Shown here: one piece after another, positions 7,509 to 22,281 of the stretch
Position numbering within the stretch: the stretch's first letter is position 1
Layout of the letters: each line of letters starts with the position of its first letter
Translations under genes and position numbers: made by a program
Notes under the pieces: model-generated
What the model saw: the letters and a program-made list of their open reading frames with translations, nothing else
Told to the model about the DNA's origin: nothing
The model's database searches: none
Source of the DNA: Sedimentisphaerales bacterium
Lineage (GTDB): Bacteria > Planctomycetota > Phycisphaerae > Sedimentisphaerales > Anaerobacaceae
Assembly (NCBI GenBank): GCA_016935195.1
Contig: JAFGRL010000103.1
Span: 3,519 to 67,518 of the forward strand
Direction of reading: 5' to 3'
DNA: 64,000 nucleotides

Positions 7509-7580
<72 letters not shown>

Positions 7581-18612: not shown

Positions 18613-18636
18613 GCGAAGCGCATCGAAGGGTCCAAT
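18537..18636 (+). repeat. Two tandem CCTGTCCT-N-CGAAGG(G) units ending in TCCAATCTC, related to the hairpin repeat family
   Basis: cctgtcct occurs at 18537 and 18599, each followed by (c)gaaggg. Compare 60966-60990 (cctgtcctaagcaaagtcgaaggag) and the reverse copy near 32350-32410. Confidence 0.6.
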
Positions 18637-18784
18637 CTCTTTTATTAAATGATCCCGCGTTTTAGTATTTTATGACTGGACACCTTTAATTGCAGCAGAC
18701 AGAGCTTTTTCAAGCGAGCTATTGTAATCGCCGCATACGATATTACGGCTGATAACCTCCGAACGTGCCTGAGCTACTGCTTTT

Positions 18785-19291: not shown

Positions 19292-19456
19292 CTCCTATTT
19301 ACGCTACAGGTGCTATTTATTCTAACATTTCCCATTTACACGGTTAAAAAACATAATATTTCTCCTGCCCAACAATAACAATGCAGTCTATATAACAGCT
19401 TCCCGTTGCTTCTTCAATTTCGCTAATAATTCTTTTGTTTCTTAGGTATGATTATT

Positions 19457-20218
19457 CTAAAACATTTCACAATATTTTTTTATTATTTCTTCAATAGTAT
19501 TGAAATCGGTGATAAGCTGAGCATGTAAAATAATAGATTTACTCTTAGAAAAAGCGTGGCTGACAAGAAAGCATATATCTCCGATGCTATCCTGTTCTTT
19601 GCGAAGTTTTTTTATCATGCCCATGTCCAAATCACACGATTTGTAGCAAACGGCAATTTTATTCTCGATTTGCTCTACTTGCGATTTTTGTTCAGGAGTT
19701 AACGTTTTGGGAGGCACATAAAGAGGAATTCGGTGTGATAGTGCGTCGCGGTAGTTTTTAAGATATTCAGCATACCATTTCTTATTGCGATCAGAATTGA
19801 GATAGCATCGAAATTCTTTAGTTAGATGTTCTTGCGTTTTTTTCTGATACAAGCCAACCTTCATTTTATCAACTTTGGCAGCCAATTGTTTTTCGTGGAT
19901 CAATACCCACGCCAGATTATCCAAAAGCCCAAAAATATTTACAAGAAAGGCGTGTAAATTAATATCAACATCACTTAATTCATTCATGCTCAATAGATTA
20001 ATTCTTTCTATCGGAAAGATTGTGAAAACATTCTCTACAGAACGCATCATAATACCCAGTCTGCGCATAACTCCATGGCTCAAATATTCCTTAGCTTTTT
20101 CTGTTTTCAGTCTGTAATACAATTTCCAAAGTTTAATTGTAAGATCCAAGTGTCGTGAGTTTATTAATGCTAACTCCGATTTAATCTTATCAACATCATC
20201 CTGCTTAAGAAATGACAT
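19457..20218 (-). CDS. Hypothetical protein with HEPN-like Rx4H motif (YRDALSHRIPLY)
   Basis: A clean 253-aa ORF in a ~35% GC segment. R157-x4-H162 (codons at 19748-19750 and 19733-19735) sits in a predicted helical context. I recognise no other family. Confidence 0.6.
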   Translation of the reverse strand: MSFLKQDDVDKIKSELALINSRHLDLTIKLWKLYYRLKTEKAKEYLSHGVMRRLGIMMRSVENVFTIFPIERINLLSMNELSDVDINLHAFLVNIFGLLDNLAWVLIHEKQLAAKVDKMKVGLYQKKTQEHLTKEFRCYLNSDRNKKWYAEYLKNYRDALSHRIPLYVPPKTLTPEQKSQVEQIENKIAVCYKSCDLDMGMIKKLRKEQDSIGDICFLVSHAFSKSKSIILHAQLITDFNTIEEIIKKYCEMF

Positions 20219-20285
20219 ATTTTTCTCTATACCTAACCATGATTATAAAAATTCATCCGCCTATGGCGGGCTCGTCCAATCTCTT

Positions 20286-21320
20286 TTATTTCACATTCTT
20301 TAGGCAACGTTTACATGGTTTTAGTCCACCATTAGAAGCGCTTAATCGAGTGTGTATCATCCTATATTTTTTCTTTTTGTTTTTTGAAGCTCTTTGGTAA
20401 TGAGGACAATGAGGCATATGATAAACTTTTGCATGTGGTAGACTGACAAATTTTGGATAAGTTATCAGTATATCTATTATCAGCATTAACTTCAGTGAAA
20501 CAGACTCTTTGTTATAGTTTACATAAACCCCATGCAATATTTTATGTCTGTTTATTTCCATAAGTTTATCATCATTATTGTCTATGCCCTTAAAAATAAT
20601 AGATTTCAAATACAGGAATATCAGTTCCATAAGTTCATCTTTAGAAACGGAGTTTTGCGAAATAAAAAGTTCTTCGCATTGGTGGATTGAATTAGTAGAG
20701 AAATTAAAATATTCATTTGGTATTCCATCTAATTGCGTAAGTAAAGCCGGAACAGACAGCTCATACTTTTTATCAAGATGTGCTTGTACGGCAGATTGTA
20801 ATATTTTCATTCTTTTTTTAGAAATAAAGCTGTTATCCCAACTTGGCGAAATAGTTTTCTTTATCATATCGCTGTTGTGGTATTTTACGATTTCATTATC
20901 AAGTAACTTTCTTATGCTTTTTCTGTCCATCTTATTTTTTATGCAATAATTCATCAGTTTTGTTGGAGTATTTATTGCAACATGAATCAGCGGTGGCCAA
21001 CCATTGTCTATCATCCATGTAAATGCTTTAAAATCTGAATTTCTTGACTTTTCAAGAGCCTCAAAAAACACCTTTGTACTTTCAGCTAGTTTTTGAAGAT
21101 GCTCTTGCATATATTTCACAGGTTCCGGAATTTTAATACTTCTGACATATGTTTGCATTTGTCTTATCGCATGCGAATAATCAGGAATATTAATAGTACC
21201 AATAGATTTTGTTACCTCCGCTAACCTTTGTTGTTGCTGTTTAATTTGTGTCATCACTTCAGCAATACGTGAGGTTGGATAAGTAAGCTTTTTTAAATCT
21301 CCAATAGAACCCATTGGCAT
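20286..21320 (-). CDS. Hypothetical protein with HEPN-like Rx4H motif (NRHKILHG) and C-terminal Ada-type zinc-ribbon-like domain
   Basis: A 344-aa ORF in a ~35% GC segment. It has R258-x4-H263, and the C-terminal VYHMPHCPHY...SASNGGLKPCKRC resembles the Ada metal-binding module (YH..C...(A/S)...G..PCKRC). Confidence 0.6.
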   Translation of the reverse strand: MPMGSIGDLKKLTYPTSRIAEVMTQIKQQQQRLAEVTKSIGTINIPDYSHAIRQMQTYVRSIKIPEPVKYMQEHLQKLAESTKVFFEALEKSRNSDFKAFTWMIDNGWPPLIHVAINTPTKLMNYCIKNKMDRKSIRKLLDNEIVKYHNSDMIKKTISPSWDNSFISKKRMKILQSAVQAHLDKKYELSVPALLTQLDGIPNEYFNFSTNSIHQCEELFISQNSVSKDELMELIFLYLKSIIFKGIDNNDDKLMEINRHKILHGVYVNYNKESVSLKLMLIIDILITYPKFVSLPHAKVYHMPHCPHYQRASKNKKKKYRMIHTRLSASNGGLKPCKRCLKNVK

Positions 21321-21513
21321 CCTCTGTGGCTAAATAAAGCTTGTCATCTTAGTTTCACAACTCGTTTCCGTCTGTTCGCGGAGCAGTTCGACCTGCTGCG
21401 ACCTGCGCAGCACGGCGAGCGCATCTGGCTAAGTATTTTAATTCTTACCCGCCTTCGGTGGAATACCAATAATAAAGCATCCTTAATCAATAATCAATTA
21501 CTTTGGCTCCACG

Positions 21514-21621
21514 TTAGCAGTTAGTTATTCCTTGTCCTTCCAGTTCTGCCATTATATCCTGGGCAATAGTTTTACCAACGCCGGGAATTTGTTCTAATTC
21601 CGCTAACCTGGATGATTCCAT
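21514..21621 (-). CDS. Possible 35-aa helix-hairpin-helix mini-ORF (or a gene fragment)
   Basis: It lies below the ORF-track cutoff. My translation is MESSRLAELEQIPGVGKTIAQDIMAELEGQGITNC, and LxxIPGVGxxxA is the HhH signature. Confidence 0.35.
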   Translation of the reverse strand: MESSRLAELEQIPGVGKTIAQDIMAELEGQGITNC

Positions 21622-21643
21622 AAAAAGCCGCCTCAGATACCAT

Positions 21644-21675
21644 TCACTAAATACTACTCACTAAATACTGTTCAC
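21644..21675 (+). repeat. Two and a bit copies of a 14-nt direct repeat (TCACTAAATACTNN)
   Basis: tcactaaatactac tcactaaatactgt tcac. A partial inverted match (gtatttagtcgatagtagta) lies at about 21770-21790. Confidence 0.7.
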
Positions 21676-21838
21676 AAATTCGCCGCCCCGGCTGCCGGCC
21701 CCCGTTGTTAGCTTGTTTCAAATTATATCATCTTGGTCAAAAACCACAAGATTAAATTCGTATATCGTATTTCGTATTTAGTCGATAGTAGTAAGTATAT
21801 AGTATTTAGCCAGTCAAGGCTAAACAAAGCAAACCGGC

Positions 21839-21887
21839 GTCACGGCCCACGACTCACGAGTCACGGGTCACGAGCCACGACTTACAC
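21839..21887 (+). repeat. Seven tandem degenerate heptamers (S-Y-CACG-R)
   Basis: gtcacgg cccacga ctcacga gtcacgg gtcacga gccacga cttacac, followed by a ~60-nt polypyrimidine run to about 21945. Confidence 0.8.
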
Positions 21888-22108
21888 CTCCCCTCCCCTC
21901 TCATCTCATCCCTTCTTTCGCCGCCCTCCCCTACCTCGCCGCACCTTATTCTATCCAAAATATCCCGTATCACACACCACAAATCCCGCCAAATCGACAA
22001 TCAAAAATTTCCTATGTGAACCACCCTTTATTCTATAAGTTGAGCTTTTCAATCGATTAGAATTCCTAAACCCACCAGGCAAAATCTCCCCGGCCAAACC
22101 TGCGGATT

Positions 22109-22281
22109 CACCCCTGATATTTCAATCAAAAACGTAGGTACCTGCCAAAAAGTTGTACAAAAAGCGCTCATTTTTGCTCAAAACACGTTGATTTTTGGGA
22201 ATTTTTCCGCATTTTCCATCATTTTTCCCCATTTTTACCCCCGATTTTTGTCTATGCTGCGCTTTTGATTGAAAAATCTCG
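22109..22281 (+). repeat. Copy X of a ~180-bp dispersed repeat (partner in inverted orientation at 32101-32289)
   Basis: A hand alignment of X with the reverse complement of Y shows long shared blocks, for example aggtacctg..agttgtacaaaaa(g/a)cgctca(t/c)ttttgctcaaaa and atgc(t/a)gcgcttttgattga. Confidence 0.75.
22171..22250 (+). other. Helically phased T-tracts (candidate intrinsically bent DNA)
   Basis: T4-5 runs start at 22171, 22192, 22202, 22212, 22222, 22232 and 22244. The central five are exactly 10 bp apart. Confidence 0.7.

Follow-up and report, generated by a model that had tools for sequence, protein, structure and literature searches.

Two unrelated families with invariant Rx4H motifs lie side by side in a low-G+C patch of a Sedimentisphaerales genome

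Among the described systems closest to the locus considered here is HepS ('HEPN solo') of the Salmonella Gifsy-1 prophage, a single-protein abortive-infection anticodon nuclease that is an inactive tetramer until a phage tail protein converts it to the nuclease (PMC13043305). RAZR (PD-T7-4), likewise a single-gene abortive-infection RNase, joins a zinc finger to a DUF4145/HEPN RNase domain, oligomerises, and becomes active once assembled around phage portal-like rings (PMC13017515). Restriction-modification (R-M) operons, too, frequently contain embedded HEPN genes, with DUF4145, Abi_2/AbiD-F, PrrC and RloC as examples (Anantharaman et al. 2013, PMC3710099). Here we analyze two neighboring genes in a 64,000-nucleotide stretch of a Sedimentisphaerales metagenome-assembled genome (MAG; GenBank assembly GCA_016935195.1, contig JAFGRL010000103.1, positions 3,519 to 67,518; hereafter the window), each of which encodes a protein with one Arg-x4-His (Rx4H) motif. 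We found that the families of these two proteins, protein 1 (344 amino acids) and protein 2 (253 amino acids), are unrelated and never co-occur elsewhere in the loci surveyed. Tentatively, and at somewhat less than an even chance, we read the locus as a horizontally acquired patch in which two unrelated, independently moving genes stand side by side, each coding for a solo Rx4H (HEPN-like) nuclease-type effector.

We propose HepS as the working model for both genes. Like HepS they are stand-alone and mobile-element-borne, and each has a single Rx4-6H motif and lacks a partner gene, a likeness that fits both proteins and especially protein 2, which is small and solitary. They differ from HepS in having no sequence similarity to it that profiles could detect among PDB sequences (which should include HepS), and protein 2 is further set apart by additional invariant residues and a small beta hairpin; the HEPN fold of the window proteins, moreover, is a proposed one. 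With RAZR, protein 1 shares the combination of a (candidate) zinc-binding domain and an R...H helical nuclease-type domain in one polypeptide, to which it adds a coiled coil. The order of the domains is reversed, however, with an N-terminal Cys4 ribbon in RAZR and a C-terminal candidate Ada-type H/C3 domain in protein 1; the motif spacing differs as well (R146...H154 in RAZR, R258-x4-H263 in protein 1), and protein 1 carries about 160 additional N-terminal residues. Because protein 1 has no PADLOC match at E <= 1 and no link to DUF4145, and because its candidate zinc domain is C-terminal and of Ada type, we rejected its identification as RAZR/PD-T7-4.

The R-M-embedded HEPN genes find a parallel in one relative of each protein. 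The protein 2 relative P0091 lies in an apparent operon of the order hsdR-hsdM-hsdS-(374-amino-acid unknown)-P0091-DUF6933-RhuM, and a protein 1 relative has a Type I R-M system as well as a HipA-like gene directly beside it. Most members of both families lie away from R-M genes, however, and profiles gave no match to any of the described families. Finally, an Rx4H motif in a helical protein recalls the MNT-HEPN (MntA-HepT) toxin-antitoxin systems; in the window, however, there is no nucleotidyltransferase partner and no DUF86 match, and the two proteins are 2–2.5 times as long as HepT. The only neighbors of the two genes, apart from each other, are GNAT, NUDIX and mnmG genes, and no nucleotidyltransferase recurs among the neighbors of homologs in the Pfam censuses of either family, for which reasons we set aside the MNT-HEPN assignment too.

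The low-G+C patch and the occurrence of its genes elsewhere

The segment that holds both genes is compositionally foreign. Its G+C content is 0.334 (0.321 for the protein 1 gene and 0.344 for the protein 2 gene), the lowest of any 2 kb in the window and about 4.6 standard deviations below the mean of 2,039-bp windows (mean 0.454, standard deviation 0.026). An earlier reading of the window from its letters alone (the sequence-only reading) had described the segment as AT-rich, at about 35% G+C, which these values bear out; the line within ntpB that it had used for comparison, at 55%, is unrepresentative because the flanks range from 0.42 to 0.53. The spacer to the right of the segment (21321–22281) has an ordinary G+C content of 0.436, so the compositional island consists of the two genes only. 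Both same-strand open reading frames (ORFs) are exactly where the sequence-only reading had placed them and of the lengths that it gave, and their products are identical to hypothetical proteins annotated in the same Sedimentisphaerales MAG (JXB29_05955 for protein 1 and JXB29_05950 for protein 2). That reading had also remarked on the lack of an adjacent integrase or MNT partner, and the ORF list agrees with it: it contains no integrase-sized ORF. An integrase-mediated genomic island was considered and rejected, in that the composition is deviant but there is no integrase, no direct repeat that brackets the island and no nearby tRNA, the nearest lying at 7509.

The sequence-only reading had treated the two genes as one module of two mutually dissimilar proteins. 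The dissimilarity held up, with hhalign returning a probability of 0.6% for the protein 1 family against the protein 2 family; the module did not. No protein 2 relative was found in the three protein 1 family loci (L001–L003) and no protein 1 relative in 89 protein 2 loci, and a profile search for the protein 2 family in protein 1 superfamily loci, which had been collected with a tight 10-sequence core alignment, was negative in all 84. Nor did the two families occur together on the contigs of the closest relatives of either protein. Overall, none of 7 close loci has a protein 2 relative beside a protein 1 relative. The reading had itself named homologs that are never adjacent in other genomes as something that would speak against it, and that is what we found; the two-gene module is therefore not supported, and we regard it as largely refuted.

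What lies next to the relatives also bears on whether the genes could still be parts of one functional system, either a toxin and its antitoxin or a sensor and its effector, which we consider very improbable. The two genes share a strand, are separated by only 67 nucleotides and are both low in G+C, and close relatives of protein 2 often have a same-strand upstream gene of effector type: P0028 (74% to protein 2) is preceded by an HNH_5 gene, P0020 (82%) by a trypsin-like gene, and P0024 by a 169-amino-acid gene and a 77-amino-acid zinc-ribbon gene. Against this, the families were never found together in the surveyed loci, and protein 2 stands alone between housekeeping genes in some genomes, as does P0063 between a glutamate-synthase-like gene and trigger factor. 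On the protein 1 side, P0002 (69% to protein 1) is flanked by a DUF3239 gene on one side and an IS200-type transposase on the other, and P0006 is preceded by a TaqI_C gene. When neighbors within three genes were clustered, no partner recurred in either family: the largest cluster held 4 of 426 ORFs in the case of protein 2 and 3 of 285 in that of protein 1. The family sizes are also unlike, at 8–12 for protein 1 versus at least 449 close clusters for protein 2, a difference of about 40-fold or more, and a terminator-like hairpin lies in the gap between the two genes, although it is suggestive by position only because such sites are not above chance in this region. Quite improbable, too, is a variant in which protein 2 is the conserved partner of swappable upstream effector genes (protein 1-type, HNH or trypsin-like). 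Five close loci suggest it: in its closest subfamily the upstream same-strand gene is that of protein 1 in the window, an HNH_5 gene in L004/L013 and a 274-amino-acid unknown in L006, with a Trypsin_2-like gene (L098) and the 169-amino-acid protein plus 77-amino-acid zinc ribbon (L099) as further examples. These differing upstream genes could be a coincidence in small accessory islets or could mark a swappable partner. The intergenic gaps, however, range from 16 to 328 nucleotides, many loci have a housekeeping or opposite-strand gene upstream, a Pfam census of 149 neighbors shows no enrichment of effector domains, and in the window the hairpin again stands between the genes. The two are thus probably independent cargo genes drawn from unannotated Rx4H families, and not a pair.

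Conserved sites, domains and contexts of the two families

Close relatives of protein 1, sought by single-sequence and profile searches among 5.8 billion clusters, are rare, numbering 8 by the former and 12 by the latter. Two forms occur among them, a long one with the entire architecture and a short form of about 300 amino acids that lacks both the 'GWPP' segment and the C-terminal domain; common to the two is a core of about 140 amino acids (residues ~156–292). A profile of this core, run exhaustively against 1.84 billion cluster representatives, retrieved 3,709 superfamily members at E <= 0.001 (1,402 at E <= 1e-10), mostly 250–400 amino acids long and with the core at the C-terminal end. 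The NRHKILHG motif (R258/H263) to which the sequence-only reading had drawn attention is present in protein 1, and in an alignment of 146 superfamily representatives no column is invariant apart from R, H and G of NRHxILHG, which argues strongly for a functional role of R258 and H263. The near-invariant positions include, within the first helix pair, W, R, I, A-H, L, P and E-G, and, past the motif, Y, S and D. In protein 1 the conserved core positions are W161, R170, I173, A177, H181, Y186-E-L-S-V-P, G199, N257-R258-x4-H263-G264, Y269, S275 and D283. A Pfam scan of the 146 representatives recognized the core in none of them.

Outside the core, protein 1 is less uniform. Residues ~15–90 are poorly conserved among relatives in both length and sequence, and the AlphaFold2 model of the whole protein was unusable (predicted local distance difference test, pLDDT, 49), its alignment comprising only 12 sequences. 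At the C terminus we propose a candidate Ada-type zinc-binding domain. The PF02805 match in protein 1 is below threshold, scoring 16.1 bits where the cut-off is 23 (E = 0.011), but PF02805 matches recur in 4 of the 12 relatives and in three superfamily members (best E = 7.8e-6), and a profile search faintly matched 1adn among PDB sequences. All six long-form relatives conserve the candidate ligands H301, C305, C336 and C339, in the contexts Y-H301-x-P-x-C305 and P-C336-x2-C339. Fusions of the core to Ada-type zinc-binding and to winged-helix domains recur among the 146 relatives, as judged by Pfam. In addition, a core relative on the Hymenobacter monticola plasmid NZ_CP094538.1 (76897–77238) bears the annotation 'SEC-C metal-binding domain-containing protein'. 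Given both Ada-type and SEC-C modules, different zinc-binding modules were apparently joined to this core on more than one occasion.

The protein 2 family, with at least 449 clusters and 90 matches in species-representative genomes, extends over Planctomycetota, Omnitrophota, Patescibacteria, Desulfobacterota, Nitrospirota and the Alpha-, Beta- and Gammaproteobacteria; cultured hosts of relatives include Stenotrophomonas, Lysobacter, Bradyrhizobium, Bordetella and Paraburkholderia. We assessed conservation in 69 non-identical full-length homologs (27–77% identity, median 35%). The motif that the sequence-only reading had singled out, YRDALSHRIPLY (R157/H162), is present, and both residues are invariant in this set, together with G49, R52, R53, G97, N101, W148, L160, R163, H232 and Q234; N94, D158, Y167, H221 and D238 are near-invariant. 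The conserved site is thus richer than a bare Rx4H motif and can be summarized as RR...N...W...YRDxLxHRIPxYxPP...H...HxQxxxD. The AlphaFold2 model of protein 2 is confident (pLDDT 88, predicted template modeling score 0.83) and consists chiefly of long helices plus the small beta hairpin. Two homologs depart from the usual length: P0091 (from a Planctomycetales MAG, L010/L022 6001–7296) has 431 amino acids with a C-terminal extension of about 170, and P0099 (326 amino acids) has an insertion of about 70 amino acids ahead of the last helix.

Both genes behave as mobile cargo. Protein 1 homologs lie below their flanks in G+C at 4 of 4 loci, by 5–13 points, as do protein 2 homologs at 91% of 75 loci, with a median difference of -7 points. 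Relatives of protein 1 are found near SLFN-type helicase, DUF3427 and HNH genes and, on a plasmid of B. cereus, with AbiH-family and 'abortive infection family' genes to one side and an AAA ATPase/helicase pair to the other; core relatives also occur in 10 IMG/VR viral contigs. Two phage-borne relatives, phi3T_86 (L094 3896–4609) and SPbetaL1 gene 127 (L095 3926–4756), consist of the N-terminal domain and core without the zinc domain and fill a variable accessory slot between yopG-like genes and the arbitrium receptor gene aimR, just upstream of the latter. Each is then followed by a different unknown gene of about 200–230 amino acids. Literature searches on phi3T_86, SPbetaL1 gp127 or the protein family found no paper.

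For both families the Pfam counts of neighbors are raw numbers, given without a background rate. Among 149 neighbors of the protein 1 superfamily, mobile-element and defense types dominate, with Xre helix-turn-helix (five), ImmA/IrrE (three), integrase (three), NERD (two), HSDR_N (two) and two DNA methylases, as well as AAA_15/21/23 (OLD/AbiEii-type ATPases), KAP NTPase, GmrSD_N, Mrr_cat and AbiTii. Protein 2 relatives occur on 17 plasmids, 13 of them conjugative, and beside DUF4238, insertion-sequence elements and VapC; in their neighbor census, housekeeping genes are mixed with resolvase (three), RhuM (two), RadC (two), Methylase_S (two) and transposases. By these raw counts, the defense signal is clear for protein 1 and weaker for protein 2.

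Proposed mode of action and its rivals

If the patch indeed holds two solo nuclease-type effectors, each gene would encode a self-contained single-protein effector of abortive-infection or toxin type, which would be held inactive as an oligomer until an infection cue switched it on to cleave RNA. The coiled coil and Ada-type zinc domain of protein 1 might then serve oligomerization, nucleic-acid binding or trigger binding, and protein 2 would be a compact helical effector with a conserved site made up of R52, R53, N101, W148, R157, H162, R163, H232 and Q234. For both proteins we only infer the HEPN fold, the dimeric active site, the RNase chemistry, the role in defense and the trigger-dependent activation. 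Both families do conserve the Rx4-6H motif of the HEPN superfamily, well beyond what chance would give, in 146 and 69 sequences, respectively, with the R and H invariant in each, as a check called for by the sequence-only reading revealed. We also take three local patterns to fit common HEPN signatures: the R-D-x-L-S-H of protein 2, the R-H-x-I-L-H-G of protein 1 and the helix pair that precedes the latter, 'A..AH..G.Y....P.L..Q.EG'. Tentatively, we say of each protein that it would work like a HEPN effector, and we assign neither to the HEPN superfamily.

A number of results weigh against the two proteins being HEPN-like defense effectors. Taking Pfam clan CL0291 and the families of Anantharaman et al. 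2013 as the HEPN reference, hmmscan against Pfam matched no HEPN family, either for the two proteins or for sets of 40, 12, 11 and 146 relatives scanned singly. PADLOC matched neither protein and none of the relatives scanned. Five profiles (A2, A3, A5, A6 and A7) run against PDB sequences found no HEPN structure, their output being limited to noise from coiled coils, one spurious match to an E2 acetyltransferase and a faint one to Ada, and comparison of the protein 1 core profile with a genuine DUF4145 domain, an insensitive profile-versus-single-sequence test, gave no link. At the level of structure, no entry of PDB or BFVD matched the protein 2 model at E <= 0.001 in Foldseek; the top matches were designed bundles, G-protein-coupled receptors and F-BAR domains, and the sole HEPN entry in the list, HepT 6m6w_B, came at rank 44 with a non-significant E of 1.7. 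Because these profile and Foldseek links are all negative or inconclusive, we have filed neither protein as a HEPN member. The invariant polar residues of protein 2, moreover, outnumber those of a typical HEPN protein and could point to a different chemistry, most of its counted neighbors are housekeeping genes (in raw counts with no background rate), and the relatives of protein 1 that phages carry might just as well be anti-defense or superinfection-exclusion factors.

The last of these points belongs to a broader alternative, which we judge somewhat unlikely, in which one or both proteins are non-defense cargo: an anti-defense or superinfection-exclusion factor, a regulator or nucleic-acid binder or, for protein 2, a non-HEPN helical enzyme. 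It would accommodate the failure to link either protein to HEPN through sequence or fold, the presence of protein 1 relatives in phages themselves, the fusion of superfamily members to winged-helix and zinc-binding domains and, in protein 2, a rich site of invariant polar residues (RR, N, W, RDxLxHR, H, HxQ and D) without structural neighbors. It sits less well with the invariant R-x4-H(-G) in a helical context, which is the hallmark of HEPN nucleases, with the embedding of a relative in an R-M operon and the Abi, R-M and ATPase neighbors, which fit a role in defense, and with the accessory slot in phi3T, of a kind in which temperate phages commonly hold defense genes. An unlikely alternative, too, would divide the two families, making the protein 1 core clade, with its 3,709 representatives, an unrecognized major branch of solo HEPN-like immunity proteins and protein 2 a new nuclease or toxin fold that is not HEPN. 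The former clade has an invariant NRHxILHG signature missed by every curated library scanned and is carried by SPbeta-like Bacillus prophages, plasmids and defense islands; the latter combines its invariant site with a confident predicted fold that has no structural neighbor in PDB or BFVD.

Whichever of these applies, neither protein matches a named abortive-infection, toxin-antitoxin or defense family, as the sequence-only reading had surmised: Pfam, PADLOC, NCBIfam and PHROGs yielded no significant match to either. Both families are absent from these libraries and from the literature searched; they most likely represent new families of solo Rx4H/HEPN-like mobile-element effectors. If so, they would add two single-protein Rx4H abortive-infection or toxin families that annotation and defense-finding libraries have missed entirely. 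In place of an undescribed two-gene HEPN module there are two independent cargo genes, and the unit of study is each gene alone. For protein 1, the presence of its superfamily in phi3T and in SPbeta-like prophages of Bacillus subtilis makes a direct genetic test easy; the protein 2 family, whose fold is perhaps unseen among solved structures, is available in the culturable Stenotrophomonas, Bradyrhizobium, Sinorhizobium and Lysobacter.

Feature coordinates, repeats and the adjoining spacer

Table 1. Positions within the window of the two genes, their domains and motifs, and nearby sequence features.
Feature	Position	Strand	Remarks
Low-G+C segment	19292..21330	.	both genes inside; lowest-G+C 2 kb in the 64-kb window
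Protein 1 gene, 344 amino acids	20286..21320	-	coiled coil, helical 'GWPP' domain, Rx4H core, candidate Ada-type zinc domain
Variable N-terminal long helices / coiled coil, residues ~15–90	21051..21278	-	alignments, low-confidence model, coiled-coil PDB noise
Helical domain with conserved GWPP...MNY segment, residues ~95–162	20835..21038	-	long form and superfamily consensus
Protein 1 conserved core, residues 163–290	20451..20834	-	superfamily of 3,709 cluster representatives
NRHKILHG motif, residues 257–264	20529..20552	-	R258, H263 and G264 invariant in 146 representatives
Candidate Ada-type zinc-binding domain, residues 296–341	20298..20435	-	weak PF02805 match, recurrence in relatives, alignment
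Protein 2 gene, 253 amino acids	19457..20218	-	compact, mainly helical; separate widespread unannotated family
Protein 2 motif YRDALSHRIPLYVPP, residues 156–170	19709..19753	-	R157, L160, H162 and R163 invariant in 69 homologs
Terminator-like, G+C-rich hairpin CCGCCATAGGCGG then ATGAATTTTT (T-run)	20247..20269	-	in the 67-nucleotide gap between the genes
Exact 17-mer AATAAAAGAGATTGGAC, copy 1	18630..18646	-	NUDIX/GNAT convergent intergenic region
Exact 17-mer AATAAAAGAGATTGGAC, copy 2	20274..20290	-	overlaps the protein 1 stop codon

The sequence-only reading had also noted repeat elements flanking the patch and an ORF-poor spacer to its right. The repeats stood up weakly: one direct repeat, the exact 17-mer, goes beyond chance, its length being reached in about 1 of 1000 composition-matched simulations, and it is the sole repeat to do so, but its copies bracket the GNAT and protein 2 genes and not the low-G+C island, and similarity stops at the repeat ends. 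The 17-mer occurs nowhere else in the window and in none of 194 related loci. As neither its distribution nor its position fitted, we ruled it out as an att-like site.

The spacer (960 bp between mnmG and the protein 1 gene) is real, with a longest ORF of 101 amino acids on the plus strand, and scans for Rfam families and tRNAs matched nothing in either the spacer or the island. Within it are a 14-nucleotide tandem GTATTTAGTGA unit at 21637–21664 with inverted partners at 21774–21809, a G-rich run followed by CGTGAC-type short repeats on the minus strand at ~21840–21940, five phased A-tracts spaced at about 10 nucleotides (~22170–22240) and a 22-nucleotide inverted repeat (22116–22137 / 22257–22278). 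On the minus strand at 21514–21621, a 35-amino-acid ORF, MESSRLAELEQIPGVGKTIAQDIMAELEGQGITNC, carries a classic helix-hairpin-helix motif (LxxIPGVGxxxAxxI) and could be a small gene or the remnant of a larger helix-hairpin-helix protein; a sigma-70-like promoter match (10 of 12 positions) at 21578–21551 runs across it.

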